A program made the position numbers and the translations under genes. The notes beneath the pieces were generated by a model. The model was not told the DNA's origin and ran no database searches. It saw nothing but the letters and a program-made list of their open reading frames with translations. From Candidatus Staskawiczbacteria bacterium (GTDB taxonomy: Bacteria > Patescibacteriota > Minisyncoccia > Minisyncoccales > Staskawiczbacteraceae), in contig JAPLYZ010000006.1 of the NCBI GenBank assembly GCA_026395295.1, forward strand, positions 21,836-85,835: DNA of 64,000 nucleotides, in the 5' to 3' direction. Positions 3,378-60,187 of this stretch are shown here, in pieces. Each line of letters starts with the position of its first letter. The first letter of the stretch is position 1.

Positions 3378-3656
3378 ATGGAAAAGAAAATAGATAAAAT
3401 AAACGAATTTCTCAAAATAATAGCCGACCCAAATCGGCTTAAAATTTTAGTTTTCTTAAAAAATAAACCTCAATGCGTTTGTAAGATTTACCCAATGCTT
3501 AAAATCTCTCAAAAATTGGCTTCACACCACTTGTCCCAATTAAGAAAGTTAGATCTGGTTAAGCAGGAGAGAAACGGAAATTTTATATATTACAGCATAA
3601 ATAAAAAAGTTTTTAAAAAATATATGCATATTCTTAATTCAACAATAAAAATATGA
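3378..3656 (+). CDS. ArsR/SmtB family transcriptional repressor
   Basis: 92 aa. Contains ADPNRLKILVFL...CVCKI...SQKLASHHLSQLRKLDLV, a wHTH with a CxC metal/metalloid site. Confidence 0.85.
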   Translation: MEKKIDKINEFLKIIADPNRLKILVFLKNKPQCVCKIYPMLKISQKLASHHLSQLRKLDLVKQERNGNFIYYSINKKVFKKYMHILNSTIKI

Positions 3657-8512: not shown

Positions 8513-8540
8513 ATAGCTACCGTAGTATACGGATACTTTT

Positions 8541-8560
8541 AATTCTGCGACCGCAGAATT
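8541..8560. repeat. Near-perfect 20-bp palindrome aattctgcg-ac-cgcagaatt
   Basis: 9-bp arms read directly from the sequence. It lies between the cassette B terminator and the helicase promoter. Confidence 0.5.
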
Positions 8561-8589
8561 CAGCGTATTAGCTGGGTGGGCAGTTTAAT

Positions 8590-8623: not shown

Positions 8624-9892
8624 ATGATACATAAACAAGCAGAAAAACCTTTATTAAATGAAACCGAAATGACTTTCGGCGGACTTGGCATTGCTCCAAA
8701 AATTCTTGATGTAATTTCAAAATTAGGATTTAGCGTCCCAACTTCCATACAACACAAGGCAATTACGCCTGCCATTGAAGGCAAAGATATTATTGGAATA
8801 GCTCAAACCGGCACAGGAAAAACTTTGGCATTTGGAATTCCCCTGATTCAGCAAATTTTGAAGGTTGGAGGACGAAAGGGTAAAGGCTTAATTATTTTGC
8901 CGACTCGCGAACTGGCCCTGCAGGTTGACGAAGTTATGCAAAAAATTGGCAGGTCATTTGGCATAAAAACAGTGGTTTTAATTGGAGGCGCTTCAATGTA
9001 TAACCAAGTGTGCTTAATAAGAAATAATCCTCATATTGTCATTGGAACCCCGGGAAGAATTATTGATCACATAGCTCAAAGAACCCTGAGTTTGAGCGAT
9101 GTCTCGGTGCTAATTTTAGACGAAGCCGACAGAATGTTTGACATGGGTTTTGCTCCACAAATAGCCAAAATACTTCAAGTTGTTCCAAAAGAAAGACAAA
9201 CAATGCTGTTTTCAGCAACCATGCCCGATGGCATTGTAAAAATTGCCAGCCATCATATGAAACTTCCGGTAAGGGTGGAAATAGCCAGGGCCGGAACCAC
9301 TGCTGAAAACATTGAGCACGAACTTTTTGTTGTTAAAAGGGACCAGAAATTTCCGTTGCTGAAAAAATTGCTTGAAGAGTACAAAGGAAGCGTGCTAATT
9401 TTTTTAAGAGTTAAGCATAACGCCAGAAAAATTTGCGATGGTTTGCGAGGCGTTGGAATTTCTTCAGCTGAAATACATTCAAACAGGTCTCTGGGCCAGA
9501 GAAAAGAAGCCTTAGAAGGCTTTAAGTTGGGCAGGTACAGGGTGCTTGTTGCAACTGACATTGCCTCGCGCGGGATAGATGTGAAGGGCATTGAGCTGGT
9601 TATCAATTATGACCTGCCGGAAAATCCTGAAGATTATGTTCACAGAATTGGAAGAACCGGCAGGGCCGGCATGACAGGCAAAGCAATTTCTTTTTGTTTG
9701 CCTGACCAAGGAGATAAAGTAAGGGAGATAGAAAGATTAACGCGGCTTTATTTGCCCATTGTAAAATTGCCGGACCTTTCGGCTCACATGGGTAAGCCCA
9801 TTAGCGCTTCAAATAGTTTTGAGAGAAATAATTATCCTCCGCGCAGGTCTAGGCAAACTAACCGTTTTAGTTATGCAAAAAAAAGATACTAA
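8624..9892 (+). CDS. DEAD-box ATP-dependent RNA helicase
   Basis: Q-motif, AQTGTGKT, PTRELA, DEAD (LILDEADRM), SAT, HRIGRTGRAG. Confidence 0.95.
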   Translation: MIHKQAEKPLLNETEMTFGGLGIAPKILDVISKLGFSVPTSIQHKAITPAIEGKDIIGIAQTGTGKTLAFGIPLIQQILKVGGRKGKGLIILPTRELALQVDEVMQKIGRSFGIKTVVLIGGASMYNQVCLIRNNPHIVIGTPGRIIDHIAQRTLSLSDVSVLILDEADRMFDMGFAPQIAKILQVVPKERQTMLFSATMPDGIVKIASHHMKLPVRVEIARAGTTAENIEHELFVVKRDQKFPLLKKLLEEYKGSVLIFLRVKHNARKICDGLRGVGISSAEIHSNRSLGQRKEALEGFKLGRYRVLVATDIASRGIDVKGIELVINYDLPENPEDYVHRIGRTGRAGMTGKAISFCLPDQGDKVREIERLTRLYLPIVKLPDLSAHMGKPISASNSFERNNYPPRRSRQTNRFSYAKKRY

Positions 9893-30024: not shown

Positions 30025-32166
30025 ATGAAATTAAATATAAAATCTAAAGACGAGCCCGACAAAAACGTAAAACGCATTTTGACGGGCAGGGAGGTCGAGA
30101 AAAAGGAAGTTCCAAAGCCAGAAAAGAAAGTGGTAGAGAATTTGTCGAACGACAAAAAACCAACCACTTTGAAAAAGGAGGAGCGAAAAGCTGAAATCAT
30201 AAAAGAGCCGGTGAAGTCAGAGATTGAGCCGCCAACCGGGTCGGAACCCAAGAAAAAAAGGAAAGAAGGGGAGTATACTGCAAAAGACATCTATGTCTTG
30301 AAAGGTTTAGAGCCTGTCAGATTAAGGCCGGGAATGTATATTGGTTCTACCGGAGTAGATGGTCTGCACCACTTGATTTGGGAGGTTGTGGACAATTGTT
30401 TAGACGAAGCCATGGCCGGTTACGCCAAAAATATTGAAGTTACCTTGTTGCCAAACAGCAGAGTAAAAATTTCTGATGATGGCAGGGGAATTCCGGTTGA
30501 AAAACATCCTGACACCGGTAAATCAACGCTGGAAACGGTTTTGACAACATTGCATGCCGGAGGAAAATTCGGCGGGGAAGCCTATAAGGTCTCCGGCGGA
30601 TTACACGGAGTTGGAATTTCTGTTGTCTGCGCACTGTCAACTTATATGCTTTCTCACGTTGAGCGCGATGGAGGAATCTATGAGCAGGAATATTTCAGAG
30701 GAAAGCCAAAAGCCAATGTAAAGAAAATTGGCGATTCAAAGAGAACAGGGACTACTCAAACCTTTGATGCCGACCCTCAGATTTTTTCAAAAATAGAATA
30801 CGACCCAAAAAGAATTCTAAGTCATTTGCGCCAACAGGCATATTTAACCAAAGGCGTAAGGATAACTTTTAAAGACGAAAGAATAAAAGGCCAGGAAACC
30901 AGTTATGATTTTTATTTTGAAGGAGGAGTTGGTTCGTATGTAAAATATCTGGTTCAAGGAAACACCCCAAGGCATCCGAATATTTTCTCCATTGCCGCGG
31001 AGAAAGAGGGAATTTGGGTTGAAGCGGCTTTTCAGTATACGCAGGAAATGGAATGCACCGAGGAATCTTTTGCCAACAACATTTATACAGTTGAGGGCGG
31101 AACTCACATTTCCGGTTTCCGCACATCTTTAACAAGGTCATTGAATGATTACGCCAGGCGCGAAGGGTTTTTGAAGGAAAAAGATGAAAATTTTTCCGGA
31201 GACGATGTCAGGGAAGGTTTAACTGCTGTTGTTTCTGTAAAAATTAGAACTCCGCAATTTGAAGGTCAGACAAAAGCAAAGCTGGGGAATCCGGAAGCTA
31301 AAAATGCCGTTGAAGCGGCAACCTCCGAAGGGTTGTCAGATTATTTGGAAAGAAATCCTTCAGACGCCAGATCAATCATAGAAAACTGTTTACTGGCGAC
31401 CAAGGCCAGGTTAGCTGCAAAGGCAGCAAGACAAACGGTTTTGAGAAAGGGCGCTCTAGAGGGGTTAGCTCTGCCGGGAAAGCTGGCCGATTGCTTGTCG
31501 CGCAAACCGGAAGAGTCGGAAATTTATATCGTTGAGGGAGATTCTGCCGGCGGTTCCAGCAAAATGGCTCGAGACAGAAGATTTCAGGCAATTCTGCCTT
31601 TGCGCGGGAAAATTTTGAATGTGGAAAGAGCAAGATTAGACAAAATGCTGGTATCAAAAGAAATCAAAGCGTTAATTATTGCCATGGGAACCGGCATTGG
31701 AGAAGATTTTGATATTACGAAATTAAGATATCATAGAATTGTAATTATGACCGATGCCGACGTTGATGGGGCTCATATCCGCACATTGCTTTTGACGTTT
31801 TTTTACAGGCACTTCAAACCGGTTGTTGATGCTGGCCATATTTACATTGCTCAACCGCCTCTTTATAAAATTCAGTCTGGTAAAAATGTTCAGTATGCTT
31901 ATACAGATGAGCAAAGAGACAAAATTTTGAAAGATATTGGCAAAGTTTCTGTGTCTATACAGCGCTATAAGGGCTTGGGAGAAATGAATCCCGAACAGCT
32001 TTGGGAAACAACAATGAATCCGGAAAACAGAACTTTGTTGCAGGTTGCAGTTGAAGAAGCCCACGTGGCAGACAAAACTTTGGATATTTTAATGGGCGAG
32101 GAAGTTGAACCTCGAAAGAAATTTATTCAAACTCACGCTAAAGCCGCAAGAAATATAGATATATAA
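30025..32166 (+). CDS. gyrB: DNA gyrase subunit B with a ~80-aa Lys/Glu-rich N-terminal extension
   Basis: VLKGLEPVRLRPGMYIGST, GHKL ATPase, Toprim EGDSAGG, PLRGKILNVE, and C-terminal QRYKGLGEMNPEQLWETTM. Confidence 0.95.
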   Translation: MKLNIKSKDEPDKNVKRILTGREVEKKEVPKPEKKVVENLSNDKKPTTLKKEERKAEIIKEPVKSEIEPPTGSEPKKKRKEGEYTAKDIYVLKGLEPVRLRPGMYIGSTGVDGLHHLIWEVVDNCLDEAMAGYAKNIEVTLLPNSRVKISDDGRGIPVEKHPDTGKSTLETVLTTLHAGGKFGGEAYKVSGGLHGVGISVVCALSTYMLSHVERDGGIYEQEYFRGKPKANVKKIGDSKRTGTTQTFDADPQIFSKIEYDPKRILSHLRQQAYLTKGVRITFKDERIKGQETSYDFYFEGGVGSYVKYLVQGNTPRHPNIFSIAAEKEGIWVEAAFQYTQEMECTEESFANNIYTVEGGTHISGFRTSLTRSLNDYARREGFLKEKDENFSGDDVREGLTAVVSVKIRTPQFEGQTKAKLGNPEAKNAVEAATSEGLSDYLERNPSDARSIIENCLLATKARLAAKAARQTVLRKGALEGLALPGKLADCLSRKPEESEIYIVEGDSAGGSSKMARDRRFQAILPLRGKILNVERARLDKMLVSKEIKALIIAMGTGIGEDFDITKLRYHRIVIMTDADVDGAHIRTLLLTFFYRHFKPVVDAGHIYIAQPPLYKIQSGKNVQYAYTDEQRDKILKDIGKVSVSIQRYKGLGEMNPEQLWETTMNPENRTLLQVAVEEAHVADKTLDILMGEEVEPRKKFIQTHAKAARNIDI

Positions 32167-43305: not shown

Positions 43306-43796
43306 TTTCAATGATAGCCGCGGTAGCAAAAAACAGAGTAATAGGAAACAAAAATACAATCCCATGGCACTTGCCTGCGGATTTTAAGTATTTTAAGGAA
43401 ACCACCTTGGGAAAAACCATTGTGATGGGTTTGAATACCTTTAACTCAATTGGAGGCAAACCTTTGCCCGGACGAAAGCACATAATTCTAACCAACGACC
43501 CAAATTTCGTGGCGCCACCGCAAGACTGTGTTGTTGCTCATTCAATTGAAGAGGTTTTGGCAATGGGAAAAGAAATTCCAGAGCTAATGATTTGCGGGGG
43601 AGCGTCGGTTTATAAACAATTTTTACCTTTGGCTCAAAAATTATATTTGACCTATGTGCACGCAAGCCCAGAGGGCGATACATATTTTCCTGAAGTTAAC
43701 CTGGCGGAATGGAAAGAAGTTAAAAGAGAAGACCACAAATCTGACGAAAAAAATAAACACGATTATTCATTTGTAATCTTAGAAAGAAAATTTTAA
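43302..43796 (+). CDS. folA: Dihydrofolate reductase
   Basis: MISMIAAVAKNRVIGNKNTIPWHLPADFKYFKETT..., GGASVY. It overlaps thyA by 4 nt. Confidence 0.95.
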   Translation: MISMIAAVAKNRVIGNKNTIPWHLPADFKYFKETTLGKTIVMGLNTFNSIGGKPLPGRKHIILTNDPNFVAPPQDCVVAHSIEEVLAMGKEIPELMICGGASVYKQFLPLAQKLYLTYVHASPEGDTYFPEVNLAEWKEVKREDHKSDEKNKHDYSFVILERKF

Positions 43797-44421: not shown

Positions 44422-44431
44422 TCTTAGTGAG

Positions 44432-44491
44432 TCAGGTTGTCATATGACAACCTAGAACAACTGCAATTTTCATTCGTTATCTTAGAAAGAA
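44432..44491 (+). repeat. Direct repeat copy 1 (~60 bp): 20-bp perfect palindrome aggttgtcatatgacaacct (44434-44453) plus a folA-3'-end-like tail
   Basis: tcaggttgtcatatgacaacctagaacaactgcaattttcattcgttatcttagaaagaa matches 45408-45474 with a few mismatches. The tail resembles 43762-43790. Confidence 0.85.
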
Positions 44492-45145: not shown

Positions 45146-45172
45146 AATATTAAAATAAATTCACCACAAGTC

Positions 45173-45192
45173 AGGTTGTCATATGACAACCT
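45173..45192. repeat. Second copy of the 20-bp perfect palindrome aggttgtcatatgacaacct
   Basis: Exact match to 44434-44453. It lies 9 nt upstream of the HTH gene ATG. Confidence 0.9.
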
Positions 45193-45201
45193 AAAATAGA
45201 T

Positions 45202-45381: not shown

Positions 45382-45407
45382 ATTATTGTTGACTTCGTCG
45401 AGACGCA

Positions 45408-45474
45408 TCAGGTTGTCGTATGACAACCTAGAACAACTGCAATTATTCATTCGTAATCTTAGAAAAAAAATAAT
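45408..45474 (+). repeat. Direct repeat copy 2: palindrome variant aggttgtcgtatgacaacct (45410-45429) plus a folA-3'-end-like tail
   Basis: tcaggttgtcgtatgacaacctagaacaactgcaattattcattcgtaatcttagaaaaaaaataat. It abuts the gatB ATG. Confidence 0.85.
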
Positions 45475-52530: not shown

Positions 52531-52559
52531 TTGACAAGCTATTATTTATATGCTATTAT
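52531..52559 (+). promoter_or_regulatory. Promoter of GC-rich cassette G
   Basis: TTGACA (52531-52536), 17-nt spacer, TATTAT (52554-52559). Confidence 0.6.
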
Positions 52560-52634
52560 TAATACAGCACATTTAACGGGTTGGCTCTTGAAAGGAAGCC
52601 TTGGTGTCCCGAATAATACACCGCCCCAGTTCCC

Positions 52635-52925
52635 ATGAAATGTACACTGGTAATTAAAGCACCGCCTGGCATTCAGGGCGACATGCGTCTATACGAAGTA
52701 GAATTACCCTCTATCCCTCCGTTCGGCACGACTTTGTCGTTTATAACGCCAAAGTGTTCAAAGAACGGCAGGGTTTTCCACGTCAACGTTACGGGATGTG
52801 AAATAACCCTAGACTCTGAGACTCGGACAACAAACCTTGTCCTCGTCTTTGCCGAAGAGGATAAAGGACGTCCCGCGACTCTTGAAGATTGGGAGGAATT
52901 TGAGGAAACTTCGGTTGATGCATAG
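52635..52925 (+). CDS. GC-rich cassette G: hypothetical 96-aa acidic-tailed protein
   Basis: ORF in a GC-rich block, opposite in strand to the flanking thrS. No SD and no recognised motif. Confidence 0.4.
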   Translation: MKCTLVIKAPPGIQGDMRLYEVELPSIPPFGTTLSFITPKCSKNGRVFHVNVTGCEITLDSETRTTNLVLVFAEEDKGRPATLEDWEEFEETSVDA

Positions 52926-52950
52926 GGACAGAGCAGACCAACTGCTTTCA

Positions 52951-52978
52951 GGGCAATCGCAAGATTGCCTCTTTTTTT
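52951..52978 (+). terminator. Terminator of cassette G
   Basis: gggcaatc-gcaa-gattgcc followed by tcttttttt. Confidence 0.75.
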
Positions 52979-53031
52979 GCTTTAAATTGAGAATTAAGCA
53001 TGCCCCATTTGTCTTAGCGCAAGGTAGTAGA

Positions 53032-53062
53032 TATGTTTTTTCACGTGGCGTGAAAAAACATA
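53032..53062. repeat. Palindrome family 1, copy 1 (tatgttttttcacg-tgg-cgtgaaaaaacata)
   Basis: 14-bp perfect arms around a 3-nt centre. It is followed by tggTATAAT (-10 box at 53069-53074). Confidence 0.9.
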
Positions 53063-53120
53063 CTATGGTATAATGACATATTGGAAATGGGAATGGAAAT
53101 ATATTATTATATTAAAAAAT

Positions 53121-53660
53121 ATGAAAAAGATTTTAGATGAAATATTATGGAACATATATTATCAGACAGAGCAGGCTCGTGTTGGTGGCCGAAATGATGG
53201 CAGGTTTTTTATTTTGAACAGTGTGTTGAAAGATATCCATAATTTTAGTTCAAAACAATCAAACGCCGCAGTCTCTGACTTAAAAAAAGAAAAACTAATT
53301 GAGAAGAAAAATTACGAAGGCTCTGTTTTAATTTCTTTGACCGAAAGGGGAGTGTTGCGAGCGATTAATTTCAGATTTAGGAGGCTTGGCAACAAAAAAG
53401 AAAAATGGGACGGAAAGTGGCGTATGGTTTTCTTCAATATTCCAGAAAATCACAGAAAGGGGAGAGATGCATTAAGGTATCGGTTGAAAATGGCAGGGTT
53501 TCATAAACTGCAAGAAAGTATATTTATATATCCATATGAATGCGAAAAAGAAGTAAGAGATTTTATTAAGTTATTTAAATTGGAAAAATACGTCCGGTTT
53601 GGTTTATTGGATTTTATTGATGATGGTCAGCGTATTGCGGAATTCTTTAAATTAAAGTAA
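53121..53660 (+). CDS. Small wHTH + PaaX-like / Cas2-fold domain protein (paralog 1, 179 aa)
   Basis: KWDGKWRMVFFNIPENHRKGRDALRYRLKMAGFHKLQESIFIYPYE is the PaaX-family/Cas2-like pattern. The track ATG at 53073 overlaps the -10 box, so 53121 is preferred. Paralogous to 58178-58717. Confidence 0.7.
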   Translation: MKKILDEILWNIYYQTEQARVGGRNDGRFFILNSVLKDIHNFSSKQSNAAVSDLKKEKLIEKKNYEGSVLISLTERGVLRAINFRFRRLGNKKEKWDGKWRMVFFNIPENHRKGRDALRYRLKMAGFHKLQESIFIYPYECEKEVRDFIKLFKLEKYVRFGLLDFIDDGQRIAEFFKLK

Positions 53661-53662
53661 GT

Positions 53663-53683
53663 TTTTTCACGCCACGTGAAAAA
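53663..53683. repeat. Palindrome family 1, copy 2 (tttttcacg-cca-cgtgaaaaa)
   Basis: It starts 2 nt after the stop codon of the PaaX-like gene. The centre is inverted relative to copy 1. Confidence 0.9.
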
Positions 53684-53714
53684 GTAGTGTAATATGAAGC
53701 CGTTTCTGAAAGTG

Positions 53715-53743
53715 TTGACAAGGCCATTTGTGCATGCTATCAT
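53715..53743 (+). promoter_or_regulatory. Promoter of GC-rich cassette H
   Basis: TTGACA (53715-53720), 17-nt spacer, TATCAT (53738-53743). Confidence 0.6.
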
Positions 53744-53827
53744 AAATTTAGTTTTTTAACAATAAGTCGTTCTCGCCGGCTAACCCGCTCAACAGAGCAT
53801 GCGAGAGTTTGCAGAAGGAGGTAAAGT

Positions 53828-54079
53828 ATGAAAAGAGCATTTGTTTGGTTGGGCGCAATAATAATTTGCGTCATGTTCGCGTGCAGTGATTGGGGACACA
53901 GTTTTCTTTTTCCCAGCAGATTCAACGCAAAACCACAGGTTCCTTCTCTATTGCCGACGAACAGTTCTGCAACTTGGGTCCCGCCGTTTCGTGTGGCGGC
54001 GCCAAATACAAACCTCGGAGTCCGAGTGCTTAGTCGGCAGTGGATACCGAATGGTGCGGTCGCGTCGCCACGCAGGTAG
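53828..54079 (+). CDS. GC-rich cassette H: small secreted/lipoprotein-like protein (83 aa)
   Basis: Strong SD aaggaggt 6 nt before the ATG. Signal peptide MKRAFVWLGAIIICVMFAC with a lipobox-like Cys. Alternative overlapping frames exist (53886-54134). Confidence 0.5.
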   Translation: MKRAFVWLGAIIICVMFACSDWGHSFLFPSRFNAKPQVPSLLPTNSSATWVPPFRVAAPNTNLGVRVLSRQWIPNGAVASPRR

Positions 54080-54134
54080 CAGATGCATTAGGAGCTCGAG
54101 TATGTCGGCAGATGTCCAACAATTTTTGGTATAA

Positions 54135-54173
54135 GGGTAGGTCTAACGCAATGCGTCACCTGCCTCTTTTTTT
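54135..54173 (+). terminator. Terminator of cassette H
   Basis: gggtaggt...cacctgcc stem with G-U pairs, followed by tcttttttt. Confidence 0.55.
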
Positions 54174-54231
54174 GTTTGGACACCTCAATTCCACCATTCG
54201 AGGTATTTTACGCTTTGTGTTAGTTGGTATG

Positions 54232-54254
54232 TTTTTTCACGCCACGTGAAAAAA
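54232..54254. repeat. Palindrome family 1, copy 3 (ttttttcacg-cca-cgtgaaaaaa)
   Basis: 10-bp perfect arms. With its flanks (gtatgttttttcacgccacgtgaaaaaa) it is an inverted copy of copy 1. It lies 25 nt beyond the dnaE stop. Confidence 0.9.
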
Positions 54255-54278
54255 TATACTTTGAACCGCAGATTTAGT

Positions 54279-57525: not shown

Positions 57526-57554
57526 TTGACAAGCATATCAAAGTATGCAATACT
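57526..57554 (+). promoter_or_regulatory. Promoter of cassette I (divergent from dnaE)
   Basis: TTGACA (57526-57531), 17-nt spacer, AATACT (57549-57554). Confidence 0.5.
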
Positions 57555-57583
57555 CAATGTAAGCTCATTAACAATTTGCTGAT

Positions 57584-57790
57584 ATGAAAAAAATAAAGTT
57601 GCTGACATGTGTTGGGTTGGTCTGTTTCTCTGTATTGTTGGTGTTAAGCTTTCTTTCAGACACTGACATTGTCCATGTTGTGAAATATATAATGGGTGGC
57701 ACAACAGTTATTTGTCTCGGCGTTGCCGACTTTCTCGTGACTCGGCAGAAATGTAGAGACATCAACAACAGCCGTCTTTACAAGCCCTAA
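57584..57790 (+). CDS. Cassette I gene 1: small two-TM membrane protein (68 aa)
   Basis: Two hydrophobic helices. Moderately GC-enriched. Confidence 0.5.
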   Translation: MKKIKLLTCVGLVCFSVLLVLSFLSDTDIVHVVKYIMGGTTVICLGVADFLVTRQKCRDINNSRLYKP

Positions 57791-57802
57791 GAAAGGAGCA
57801 TT

Positions 57803-58006
57803 ATGTTTTTCAAAAAATGGTTTAGACAAAGAAAGCTGGCGAAGTTGGAAAAAGACTTGGTCAGAGCAAGGTCATTGCTTGCATCATACAAAGGTATTAG
57901 TTCTTCTGCCGCAGATTCTTTCTTAACATGGCAGGCGTGGGCGCCGGAGGGTTTCTACTCAAGGGAAGTTAGTAGGCTGGAACAGGAAATCCAGTCGTTG
58001 AGATAA
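57803..58006 (+). CDS. Cassette I gene 2: small basic coiled-coil protein (67 aa)
   Basis: Good SD (aaaggag) 6 nt upstream. Heptad-like KLAKLEKDLVRARSLL...LEQEIQSL. Confidence 0.5.
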   Translation: MFFKKWFRQRKLAKLEKDLVRARSLLASYKGISSSAADSFLTWQAWAPEGFYSREVSRLEQEIQSLR

Positions 58007-58029
58007 CGGCGAAGTAATTTTCGGCTAAA

Positions 58030-58091
58030 CCTCGGATGAGAAATCTCGCAAAACAATTTTGCGTGGAATCTCATCGCGGGGTTCTTTTTTT
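58030..58091 (+). terminator. Terminator of cassette I (long compound hairpin)
   Basis: cctcggatgaga...tctcatcgcgggg outer stem, with an inner cgcaaaa-caa-ttttgcg, followed by ttcttttttt. Confidence 0.6.
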
Positions 58092-58113
58092 GTATTAATT
58101 ATTTATGTCATCC

Positions 58114-58153
58114 TCTCGGTAAAAACTACGCCATGGCGTAGTTTTTACCGAGA
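58114..58153. repeat. Palindrome family 2, copy 1: perfect 40-bp palindrome tctcggtaaaaactacgcca|tggcgtagtttttaccgaga
   Basis: Read directly from the sequence. It is followed by tggTATAAT (-10 box at 58166-58171) and the ATG at 58178, so the transcript looks leaderless. Confidence 0.95.
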
Positions 58154-58177
58154 CTGGATTTGTGGTATAATGAATAT

Positions 58178-58717
58178 ATGAGCAATACAAGAGAAAAGAT
58201 ATTATTACTTTTGTTGGGAGGGTTAGCTTTTGGTTGTAGTTATACGTCTCGAAATCAGTGGAGAATATTACGAACCGTCTCACGGGAGTGGAAAAAATTA
58301 GATCAAAAAGAATTAAGAGAGGGAATAACATATTTGTATAGATTGGGGGTTCTCGATAGAGAAGAAAATAGTGATGGAATTTTTAAAGTTTCATTAACAG
58401 AAAAGGGTAAATTAAAGGCGTTAAATTGTCGGCTTAACAGTATAAAAAATAAAGAAATAAAATGGGATAAGAAATGGAGGATGGTTTCTTTTGATGTCCC
58501 TCAAAAGTTTAAAAAAGAAAGGGATGTCTTGCGCAGAAAATTAAAAAAGATTGGATTTTGTGAATTGCAAAAGAGTGTTTTTATAACTCCTTTTGATTGC
58601 AAGGAGGAAATAGAGGATTTAGTTAAGCGCTTTGAATTGGACGAATACGTCCGTTTCGGAATTTTAGAGTATATTGACAGAGAGGGCTATTTCAGAAAAT
58701 TTTTCAAGGTAAATTAA
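58178..58717 (+). CDS. Small wHTH + PaaX-like / Cas2-fold domain protein (paralog 2, 179 aa)
   Basis: KWDKKWRMVSFDVPQKFKKERDVLRRKLKKIGFCELQKSVFITPFD. The ATG at 58178 lies 6 nt after the -10 box. Same length as paralog 1. Confidence 0.7.
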   Translation: MSNTREKILLLLLGGLAFGCSYTSRNQWRILRTVSREWKKLDQKELREGITYLYRLGVLDREENSDGIFKVSLTEKGKLKALNCRLNSIKNKEIKWDKKWRMVSFDVPQKFKKERDVLRRKLKKIGFCELQKSVFITPFDCKEEIEDLVKRFELDEYVRFGILEYIDREGYFRKFFKVN

Positions 58718-58722
58718 ATGAC

Positions 58723-58762
58723 TCTCGGTAAAAACTACGCCATGGCGTAGTTTTTACCGAGA
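58723..58762. repeat. Palindrome family 2, copy 2: identical 40-bp palindrome
   Basis: Exact repeat. The shared 45-mer is 58113-58157 = 58722-58766. It starts 5 nt after the stop codon and ends 8 nt before the rnhB ATG. Confidence 0.95.
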
Positions 58763-58770
58763 CTGGCGTT

Positions 58771-59460
58771 ATGAACTATCCGAATTTTGAAGAGGAAAAA
58801 AAATTATGGAAAAAAGGGTATAAATTTGTTGTTGGTTTAGATGAGGCAGGCAGGGGGCCTTTAGCTGGTCCGGTTGTTGCTGGCGCGGTTATCATAAATC
58901 CGAAGCACGAAATGCGAAACCCGAAACAATATCGAATTTCGAGTTTAGGTATAAGGGATTCTAAACAGTTGTCAGAAAAGCAGCGAGAACGTTTGTTCAA
59001 ATTTTTGACTCGGCACCAAGATATTAGATGGGGGATTGGCATTGTTTCGGAAAAAATAATTGATAAAATCAACATTTTGGAGGCGACAAAACTGGCAATG
59101 CAGAAAGCAGTAGAGAATTTAAAAAAAGATGGGTGGGTTCATAATTCACGCTATCGCGCGAAAAGTGAACCTGGTGTAAAAGTGGATTTTTTGTTAATTG
59201 ATGGGAATTTTAGGATAAAATCTAATGTTCCTCAGAAATCCATTATTAAAGGAGACCAAAAAGTTGTTTCAATTTCGGCGGCGAGCATAATTGCCAAAGT
59301 TACCAGGGACAGAATAATGAAAAAAATTCATAAAAAATACCCGCAGTATAATTTTGCAAAGCACAAAGGGTATCCAACAAAGTTGCACAGAGAAATGATA
59401 AAAAAATTTGGAATTTGTCCTATCCACAGAAAGTCTTTTTATCCTATATCGTCAATGTGA
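58771..59460 (+). CDS. rnhB: Ribonuclease HII
   Basis: VGLDEAGRGPLAGPVVAGAV, DSKQLS, IIAKVTRD, GYPT. Confidence 0.93.
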   Translation: MNYPNFEEEKKLWKKGYKFVVGLDEAGRGPLAGPVVAGAVIINPKHEMRNPKQYRISSLGIRDSKQLSEKQRERLFKFLTRHQDIRWGIGIVSEKIIDKINILEATKLAMQKAVENLKKDGWVHNSRYRAKSEPGVKVDFLLIDGNFRIKSNVPQKSIIKGDQKVVSISAASIIAKVTRDRIMKKIHKKYPQYNFAKHKGYPTKLHREMIKKFGICPIHRKSFYPISSM

Positions 59461-59470
59461 ATATTAACTA

Positions 59471-59499
59471 AAAAACTGCCCCGTTGCCGGGGCAGTTTT
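59471..59499. terminator. Bidirectional terminator
   Basis: aaaaa, then ctgccccg-ttgc-cggggcag, then tttt, between convergent genes. Confidence 0.8.
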
Positions 59500-59509
59500 G
59501 GTTTATTCT

Positions 59510-60187
59510 CTACTGAAACGGCGAGATCTCTTTCCACGTCGGCGTAGTCAGGTTTGTCTTCACGGTCACGTTATTGAGGTAGCTGGTGCTACAGCAGTAG
59601 GTTCCGGGACTGTCGCAAACTTGCAGGTTGGCAGTCTTTGTTCCTACGGTAGAGTAGAGATGAGTAACAGAGCTTGCCTTGCAACTGGCATCTCCTGCGC
59701 TGTCGCAAGTGGCGCCGTCTCCATAGCTCCAGAGATATGTTCGGTTGCCGTTTGTTACGCAAGACTGGGCAGTGTTGCTTGCGTCGTAGCAGATTGAAGT
59801 GTCTTTGAAGGTAACAGGACGACCCAGCAGAACATTGGCGGGGTCAAGCGTGAATGACGGGCTCGGCCATGATTTAGTTGCCGTTGCAAAGTATGTGCCG
59901 GGCATAGTTGTAGTTGTTCCTCCGTAATACCATGTGGCAGAACTACACGGATGGGTCGCGTCGCACGCTCTTACTCGCCAGTAGTATCGAAGAGTGCCTG
60001 TAGTGTTGTAGAGTAATTCATTTTTTGTCCCCGGGTTGATGCTATTGATGTGAACAGGTCCTGTAATGACCGAAGGGTTGAAAGTTCCGCTAGGATAACC
60101 CTGTGTACTGCTGGCAAAGTAGTCTATAGAAGAGAACGTACTACTTTGTGACACTTGCAAATCAAATCCTGCGCTAGAATCGCACAA
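59510..60187 (-). CDS. PKD-domain C-terminal segment, probably the frameshifted continuation of the giant surface protein
   Basis: Contains FKDTS...YLWSYGDG...HLYSTVGTKTANLQVCD (PKD). It has only a TTG start and no RBS, and overlaps the upstream ORF by 64 nt in the -1 frame. Confidence 0.55.
   Translation of the reverse strand: MCDSSAGFDLQVSQSSTFSSIDYFASSTQGYPSGTFNPSVITGPVHINSINPGTKNELLYNTTGTLRYYWRVRACDATHPCSSATWYYGGTTTTMPGTYFATATKSWPSPSFTLDPANVLLGRPVTFKDTSICYDASNTAQSCVTNGNRTYLWSYGDGATCDSAGDASCKASSVTHLYSTVGTKTANLQVCDSPGTYCCSTSYLNNVTVKTNLTTPTWKEISPFQ

Follow-up and report, generated by a model that had tools for sequence, protein, structure and literature searches.

Repressors that use a second operator hundreds of base pairs away from the first include those of lac (O1/O2) and gal (OE/OI) and λ CI (OR and OL, which bracket cI-rexAB); in λ, the two operator regions have the repressor gene between them. 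In REP/RAYT systems (repetitive extragenic palindromes and their associated tyrosine transposases, also called REPtrons), a single gene, inherited vertically, has its cognate palindromes on both sides, and paralogues have different, fast-evolving palindrome families. Rickettsia palindromic elements are in-frame palindromic insertions in genes. To our knowledge, hardly anything is known of how genes are regulated in the candidate phyla radiation (CPR; Patescibacteria). Here, we analyse a 179-aa regulator gene that is bracketed by two identical 40-bp palindromes in a 64,000-nt stretch of contig JAPLYZ010000006.1 from a Candidatus Staskawiczbacteria bacterium (hereafter the window, to which all positions refer). 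The closest characterised relative of the encoded protein is PaaX of E. coli, whose operator, TGATTC(N27)GAATCA, spans 39 bp, and which represses Px, its own promoter, by sterically hindering RNA polymerase (PMC9493321). We conclude that the gene most likely belongs to a large, undescribed family of self-regulating repressors with private operator pairs.

The sequence TCTCGGTAAAAACTACGCCATGGCGTAGTTTTTACCGAGA is a perfect 40-nt palindrome that occurs twice without a mismatch, at 58114-58153 (P1) and 58723-58762 (P2), neither copy having a strand of its own. Identity between the copies spans 45 nt (58113-58157 and 58722-58766). Between them lies the regulator gene (58178-58717, forward strand); P2 begins 5 nt past its TAA stop codon and ends 8 nt ahead of the ATG of rnhB. 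There is no third copy of the 40-mer in the window when up to 3 mismatches are allowed, and no further copy in 5.7 kb of additional sequence at the left end of the matching contig; the number of copies expected by chance, estimated from 100 shuffles, is 0. Only two other dyads in the window reach 15 of 18 paired positions (none does in the shuffles), and both are ordinary terminators. Across 843 kb of retrieved sequence, a related site at locus L007 alone comes within 4 mismatches of the 24-nt core of the 40-mer. An Rfam scan of the whole window gave no family at the gathering threshold. Both copies have the symmetric centre ACGCCATGGCGT, where the closest orthologues have the asymmetric ACGCTATCGCGT; the centre in the window is a derived version with perfect symmetry. 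Folding predictions give P1 as single-stranded DNA a hairpin of -19.8 kcal/mol (z -9.2) and P2 as RNA, with its 18-bp hairpin, -35.5 kcal/mol (z -5.7; 58700-58800 folded). In four independent assemblies of the closest relatives (L164, L165, L166 and L167), the contigs stop at or inside the upstream palindrome, and the same four contigs run on through the downstream copy into rnhB. Problems in sequencing or assembling the hairpin may explain these ends, as may strain variation that starts exactly there.

P1 overlaps the promoter of the regulator gene. A -35-like hexamer, TTTACC (58144-58149, forward strand), lies inside its right arm, 16 nt upstream of the -10 box, and is followed by an extended -10 element, TGgTATAAT (58163-58171, forward strand); the combination TTTACC-16-TATAAT has 10 of 12 matches, with the TG present. 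Since only 6 nt separate the -10 box from the ATG, the transcript is probably leaderless. The same geometry recurs in related loci. Among the 24-25 loci with a strong extended -10 box, the centre of the upstream dyad mostly lies 32-40 nt before the box, that is, ~45 bp upstream of the predicted transcription start, with the right arm over the -35 region. The distance from the -10 box to the ATG is 6-7 nt in 12 of 25 such loci, which supports leaderless transcription. A preliminary description of this DNA, made from its sequence alone, had placed two 40-bp palindromes around the 179-aa gene, with P1 at the -35 position of a TGgTATAAT promoter and the -10 box 6 nt before the ATG; its coordinates, the 45-bp identity and the spacings to the stop codon and to rnhB were all correct, and the promoter geometry is borne out.

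Downstream of P2, the rnhB gene (58771-59460, forward strand) encodes RNase HII (Pfam RNase_HII, E 3e-36). Its start codon lies 8-12 nt past the dyad in the window and in L006, leaving no space for a promoter of its own after P2, and it is therefore probably read through from the regulator promoter. A canonical intrinsic terminator (59472-59499, forward strand) would end this transcription unit. Another canonical terminator lies 22 nt ahead of P1. The terminator-like motif that ends in CTCATCnCGGGGTTCTTTTTTT (58062-58091 in the window) recurs 20-60 nt before the first dyad in L009, L006, L014 and L081; L009 has no GC-rich cassette at this position, and L081 is a paralogue linked to ligT.

The exact protein is NT155_01060 of a Candidatus Staskawiczbacteria metagenome-assembled genome (MAG), and has a winged helix followed by a Cas2-like domain. 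Pfam assigns PF20803 (PaaX_M, Cas2-like; E 1.4e-22, 80 bits with a cut-off of 24), which is present in all the homologues listed, and reports no PaaX_C in the 179-aa protein. The PaaX model TIGR02277 matches with 41.1 bits (cut-off 264.55) and covers only profile positions 33-154 of 279. The cas2 model TIGR01573 scores below threshold (22.8 bits, cut-off 24.5), and PADLOC gives only weak Cas2 matches (E 1e-6 to 2e-3). An AlphaFold2 model (mean pLDDT 83) has three helices and a beta-hairpin wing, and then a beta-alpha-beta-beta-alpha-beta (ferredoxin-like) domain. With this model, Foldseek finds E. coli PaaX (8a39) as the best match, then M. tuberculosis Rv0674 and then many Cas2 structures; a sequence search of solved structures gave marginal matches only (E 0.2-0.9). 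The Pfam domain, the partial TIGR02277 match, the predicted fold and the ranking of 8a39 together indicate that the protein corresponds to the first two domains of PaaX without the C-terminal effector domain. At E <= 1e-10, this large family comprises 2,721 clusters (50% identity), of which the 150 listed are mostly 170-240 aa long. The Asp of the Cas2-like FDxP motif is invariant. Several paralogues are found per genome, and these, at 40-60% identity to one another, are old. We found no description of PaaX in Patescibacteria, of PaaX together with Cas2 and a winged helix, or of the bracketed arrangement in the searchable literature.

We then asked how widely such genes are bracketed. By protein similarity alone, 80 loci (L-numbers) were gathered, with one genome per species, from Staskawicz-, Nealson-, Giovannoni-, Moranii-, Wildermuth-, Falkow-, Terry-, Taga- and Vogelbacteria (Parcubacteria). 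For each locus, the 260 nt upstream of the gene were locally aligned with the 200 nt downstream, and 281 shifted pairs served as controls. Of 81 loci, 67 score above the maximum of the controls and 76 above their 95th percentile; most of those with low scores are cut short or include Ns, or else retain a short core common to both sides. Copy-to-copy identity is 0.72-0.98 within 20 bp of the centre on either side, falls to ~0.5 at 21-24 bp and is at a background of ~0.3 beyond, and dyad pairing does not drop below 65% within 21 bp of the centre. Given these bounds, we take the unit to be a discrete dyad of ~42 bp. Identity does not, on average, extend beyond it. The two centres lie 593-750 bp apart (median 639).

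The downstream centre is found 9-87 nt past the stop codon (median 32), and the spacing to the next gene varies between -8 and 306 nt. The downstream neighbour is convergent in 12 of the dyad-bearing loci measured for spacing, and in 17 of 77 over all loci. Of 55 downstream copies, only 4 have a strong extended -10 box after them. Being anchored to the stop codon, sometimes facing convergent neighbours and seldom followed by a -10 box, the downstream copy thus belongs to the regulator gene. For the same reasons (4 of 55 and 17 of 77), we rejected P2 as a general operator of the next gene's promoter. We also rejected P2 as a terminator, since U-tracts are not enriched after it (T-runs follow 22 of 56 downstream copies versus 32 of 59 upstream copies) and a terminator scan that finds the rnhB terminator is silent here. 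One exception, L052, has a dyad-plus-promoter module, TGTTATAAT / TGTGGTAGAAT, duplicated as a whole downstream of the regulator (2903-2970 and 3530-3598); there, the second site does serve the promoter of the next gene. In 471 kb of loci, we counted 94 core-type long dyads, 47 upstream of these genes, 42 downstream and 5 elsewhere. With 89 of 94 flanking this gene family, they are not the generic dispersed REP-like element whose finding, according to the preliminary description, would have undone the link between gene and palindrome. Eleven loci, as well as the closest relatives (72% identical), retain the order dnaE (reverse strand), regulator, rnhB, with proteins that are 52-73% identical.

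A paralogous regulator gene, also of 179 aa (53121-53660, forward strand; PF20803, E 2e-23, with a weak HTH_27 match), lies 5 kb upstream in the window and has sites of its own. Its C-terminal 115 aa are 48% identical to those of the 58-kb protein by BLASTP, and with the latter as query the N-terminal 63 residues remain unaligned. Site copy 1, TTTTTTCACG TGG CGTGAAAAAA (53031-53060), ends 8 nt before a TGgTATAAT box, copy 2 (53657-53686) overlaps the stop codon, and copy 3 (54227-54256) lies past a small GC-rich cassette, between convergent gene ends; like P1 and P2, none is assigned a strand. The layout is thus site-gene-site-cassette-site, and the asymmetric centre (TGG/CCA) of copy 1 is flipped relative to copies 2 and 3. 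The 11-mer tggtataatga is common to both loci (53066-53076 and 58163-58173), so that the shared architecture proposed earlier, including this 11-mer, holds.

The dyads fall into two classes. Class A, found at most loci including the orthologues of the 58-kb gene, follows C-AAAA-W-TT-n-Y-R-CGA/TCG-Y-R-n-AA-W-TTTT-G (the slash marking the centre), and C-3 and G+3 are invariant in two sets of elements (83/83 and 95/95). Class B, which includes the sites of the 53-kb paralogue, has the form T6-core-A6 and comes with a clearly different N-terminal domain. Positions ~14-21 from the centre are hypervariable between loci, dyad-symmetric, and common to both copies of a locus. In 95 class A elements, 83.9% of outer cells are paired, versus 55.5% in shuffles and 36-41% with a slid partner; the outer covariation score is 0.70, versus 0.21 (shuffles) and 0.15 (slid), and the four Watson-Crick pairs are similarly frequent. 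Mismatches within dyads include 85 G:T and 53 A:C on the sense strand; the majority, 191, are not wobble. The median site identity is 0.81 between the two copies of one locus and 0.48 between paralogues of the same genome (maximum 0.69). The earlier statement of completely different palindromes (at 53 and 58 kb) does not hold across the family, in which most sites share a CGATCG-type core and A/T tracts; the outer arms are private to each locus.

Divergence of the inner site (positions 1-13) follows divergence of the protein (rho 0.59), and still tracks the N-terminal domain when divergence of the C-terminal domain is accounted for (partial rho 0.34, permutation p ~0.001, Mantel-type test). 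The proposal that each paralogue has co-evolved with its cognate site is supported in part: each has a private site (0.81 versus 0.48), and the two site classes accompany two N-terminal domains. Covariation between recognition helix and palindrome, which had been suggested as a test of that proposal, was not detectable residue by base.

Size, and the position of the outer hexamers, are our main reason for reading the palindromes as operators. The PaaX operator is a ~39-bp dyad over the promoter of its own gene, and the dyads here, for which binding is predicted, measure 40-42 bp and lie over the -35 region; the outer hexamers of the PaaX operator are 14-19 bp from the centre, matching the locus-specific outer positions here. 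In PaaX of E. coli W (8a39, the best structural match), the winged helix is likewise followed by a central Cas2-like domain (PF20803), and this central region, the counterpart of the Cas2-like domain here, is the described dimerisation motif. On balance, we favour the view that these proteins are minimal PaaX-type autorepressors with a bracketing pair of operators, of which the upstream site would serve autorepression and the downstream site would be an auxiliary for looping or as a roadblock. A protein dimer would bind the 40-42-bp dyad as double-stranded DNA. As the right arm of P1, the candidate autoregulatory operator, covers the -35 region of the extended -10 promoter, its occupancy would shut off the regulator's own gene, as PaaX does at Px. 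P2, the candidate auxiliary operator, would be a second operator for the same protein; it would probably cooperate with P1, looping out the ~610-bp gene, and block RNA polymerase running into rnhB. The core and A/T tracts form the family-level part of the site, and the outer arms the part private to each locus. Selection for binding would keep the arms symmetric and the copies alike, probably with hairpin-templated correction and gene conversion.

Several observations weigh against autorepression through paired operators as the full account. Most operators are shorter than a perfect palindrome with 20-bp arms. The outer arms show no correlation with protein divergence (rho 0.06 in the Mantel-type test), orthologues with nearly the same recognition helix (helix 3) differ in their arms, and no signal emerged from residue-base mutual information over 55 loci (means: N-terminal domain 0.150, C-terminal domain 0.144). 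When the paired copies of each locus were compared, we counted 39 compensated double changes, versus 4-11 in slid controls. At L024, L046, L052 and L055, each copy keeps its own symmetry, and at L018, L024 and L055 the inner spacer differs between copies while each remains symmetric. In the 53-kb locus, L081, L051 and L054, the copies have their asymmetric centres in opposite orientations. A hairpin or template-switch process predicts such compensated changes more directly than does recognition by one protein. The genes downstream (55 loci) are unrelated housekeeping genes, led by those for RNase HII (9), RmuC (3) and prepilin peptidase (3), with TIM, aldolase, TruB, LigT, UvrD, FtsK and S12 among the others, so that no clear regulon shows beyond the gene itself.

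The presence of family dyads within rnhB, in frame, is also odd for an operator. In the window, a degenerate dyad with the arms GGTTCATAATTCACGCTA and TCGCGCGAAAAGTGAACC (P3, 59136-59171, with no strand assigned) lies in frame in the rnhB linker and encodes WVHNSRYRAKSEP. Its arms (GTTCATA...) are unlike the flanking 40-mer and match the sites of NT155_04715 (L081), a paralogue upstream of ligT in the same MAG; with this arm type, cross-regulation is possible. Comparable in-frame dyads with other arms occupy the same rnhB linker in L005, L010, L017 and L085, and are absent in L004, L006, L009 and L033. The L005 intragenic dyad matches the flanking element of L005 itself, and the close relative L004 has none. 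Another in-gene dyad of the family lies in a 716-aa open reading frame (ORF) in L016. Taken together, arms that do not track the protein, compensated changes, flipped centres and in-frame rnhB dyads point to hairpin-templated correction and gene conversion as processes that shape the elements. Separately, G+C-rich perfect or near-perfect palindromes unrelated to the family lie inside ORFs at L005 4150-4182 (a second palindrome in the L005 rnhB), L022 5007-5039, L060 2346-2378, L067 2252-2284 and L079 4204-4236; in-frame palindromic insertions may be common in these CPR genomes.

Many of these features would be expected of a domesticated palindrome-protein pair that follows REP/RAYT logic, in which the protein acts on a hairpin or cruciform, possibly cutting it via the Cas2-like domain, and the palindromes are maintained, homogenised and occasionally copied, with regulation secondary or absent. 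The cognate palindromes of paralogues differ, the hypervariable arms covary symmetrically (83.9% paired; 0.70 versus 0.21), changes are compensated within single copies, and centres are flipped; extra copies lie nearby, some of them in frame (rnhB of the window, L005, L010, L017, L085 and the 716-aa ORF of L016), including the L005 copy that resembles its own flanking element and is missing from L004. The invariant Asp of FDxP, and the occurrence of several paralogues per genome beside unrelated housekeeping genes, also fit. We nevertheless consider such a pair unlikely. The elements are not dispersed, with only 5 of 94 dyads away from the genes and no other 40-mer in 64 kb plus 5.7 kb, and the closest characterised relative is a repressor. 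The paralogues are old, and the dnaE-gene-rnhB order is conserved at 52-73% identity. Neither window paralogue has a transposase or HUH domain, PF20803 being the sole Pfam domain above threshold in both. A search of 2.9 million viral contigs and of phage records yielded no relatives, and in plasmid records there were only distant true PaaX genes. By the usual marks of insertion sequences and miniature inverted-repeat elements, we saw neither recent identical copies nor a transposase; paralogues are 40-60% identical, and synteny is kept. The analogy with mobile elements and toxin-antitoxin families drawn in the preliminary description thus gains no direct support from the conserved gene order and the lack of phage and viral homologues. 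In a form that we rate as rather unlikely, the winged helix would read the core, and the extruded hairpin or cruciform would be nicked or resolved by the Cas2-like domain, in which the Asp is invariant. If true, such a self-maintaining pair would drive arm perfection, copy conversion, centre flips and the seeding of copies such as that in rnhB, and would be a new, non-HUH counterpart of REP/RAYT on a Cas2 fold in CPR bacteria.

The palindromes might instead act as nucleic-acid structures rather than as sites for this protein, with hairpins that insulate the gene, P2 as a terminator, 3'-end stabiliser or RNase III site and P1 as a barrier, with their likeness due to gene conversion. We find this quite improbable, despite the very stable hairpins that both are predicted to form as RNA or DNA, the covarying pairing with its excess of G:T over A:C (85 versus 53) and the closeness of P2 to the stop codon. 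P1 is not transcribed from the regulator gene's own promoter, because it lies upstream of the -10 box, and a terminator already stands 22 nt ahead of it; P2 shows no preference for a following U-tract and receives no terminator call. Most mismatches, 191 in number, are not wobble. Sequence-specific recognition is indicated by the invariant C-3/G+3 and by a CGATCG core that persists in very divergent loci, and the elements occur almost only beside one gene family, with hypervariable arms common to both copies. Recombination between the two palindromes, by which exchange would delete or invert the promoter and gene as a cassette-like or phase-variable unit, seems highly improbable to us. No recombinase gene was seen at the locus, where the neighbours are dnaE and rnhB, and the orientation of the regulator relative to rnhB is the same in 11 of 11 syntenic loci. 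No empty site with a solo palindrome was seen at adjacent dnaE-rnhB genes; a scan of 80 metagenome rnhB loci, all <=59% identical, found none with a family gene within 2.5 kb, and this set is too distant for a good empty-site comparison. In favour of such exchange are 45 identical bp that are at once direct and inverted repeats, 609 bp apart, the site-gene-site-cassette-site arrangement at 53-54 kb, the flipped centres, the contigs of the closest relatives (four assemblies) that end at or inside P1, and the non-homologous GC-rich cassette just upstream of P1 that is missing from most orthologous loci.

Three GC-enriched cassettes adjoin the regulator genes in the window (52531-52980, 53715-54175 and 57526-58090; 44-55% G+C versus ~35%). 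In each, a small ORF is combined with a separate TTGACA-17-TAxxAT promoter and with a hairpin that resembles a terminator and has a T-run. These ORFs encode 96, 83 and 67 aa, the latter two after a Shine-Dalgarno-like sequence, and show no homology among themselves or with ORFs upstream of paralogues in other loci. The cassette at 57.5-58.1 kb is an insertion relative to most orthologous dnaE-regulator loci. Beyond rnhB and its terminator, an ORF lies on the reverse strand at 59510-60184. A repeat search of the window found no CRISPR-like array; cas1 is not adjacent to the regulator gene, and no dedicated Cas1 model was run window-wide.

A third, unrelated palindrome family, AGTCAGGTTGTCATATGACAACCTAGAA, occurs at 44430-44457, 45169-45196 and 45406-45433, where its copies bracket an HD-domain gene and a 59-aa HTH_17 gene, another small regulator with its own palindrome. 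After copy 1, and again after copy 3, come ~35 nt in which the 3' end of the folA coding sequence (43762-43789) is duplicated, just ahead of the starts of the HD gene and gatB. Two weaker, lone class-A-like dyads lie elsewhere in the window. The first (8528-8572) follows a terminator, and 63 nt separate it from the -10 box of a DEAD-box helicase gene that is leaderless (ATG at 8624); the second (30126-30169) is within the N-terminal, Lys/Glu-rich extension of gyrB. Both may be remote targets or may have arisen by chance, as the window holds 16 such weak dyads, versus 0-9 in shuffles.

The family is large, with several paralogues per genome despite the very small size of these genomes. If its members are autorepressors with paired operators, as we favour, the genomes would supply dozens of matched repressor-operator pairs on one scaffold (~60 here), with a common core and private arms. 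They would offer a natural experiment on the diversification of DNA-binding specificity in the absence of cross-talk, and could furnish orthogonal parts for synthetic biology. The bracketing of a gene by two copies of its own operator would be unusual, and the in-frame position of related dyads inside the RNase HII gene is unusual too. A link between the Cas2 fold and palindrome recognition would also bear on the origin of Cas2 and PaaX.

How the locus relates to described systems can be stated element by element. Like the Rickettsia elements, dyads of this family lie in frame in the rnhB linker and in another ORF, and are present or absent between close relatives; at ~36-44 bp, however, they are much shorter, very few, and otherwise tied to one regulator family. 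The protein resembles Cas2 in its ferredoxin-like fold and in its beta1-Asp and QxSVF-like motifs, with sub-threshold scores, and differs in being fused to a winged helix and in having dnaE and rnhB rather than cas1 as neighbours. As in REP/RAYT systems, the gene is flanked by its own palindromes, which evolve fast and retain hairpin potential; the protein, however, is not a Y1/HUH transposase, and palindromes number 2-3 per locus, whereas RAYT-type palindromes are dispersed in tens to hundreds. In contrast to the looping repressors of lac, gal and λ, single identical 40-bp dyads stand exactly at the ends of a one-gene unit, family-wide, and looping is predicted. With PaaX itself the differences are that the protein here, of 179 aa, is without the C-terminal phenylacetyl-CoA effector domain and has no paa genes nearby (no paa family is among the 25 downstream-gene families listed for 55 loci, and the neighbours in the window are dnaE and rnhB), that the centre of the site is conserved as well as the outer hexamers, and that a second operator copy brackets the gene, with several paralogues per genome each having private sites. 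What is notable is thus the conserved bracketing, the fast-evolving, symmetric private arms and the in-frame rnhB copies, within the known PaaX-type repressors.

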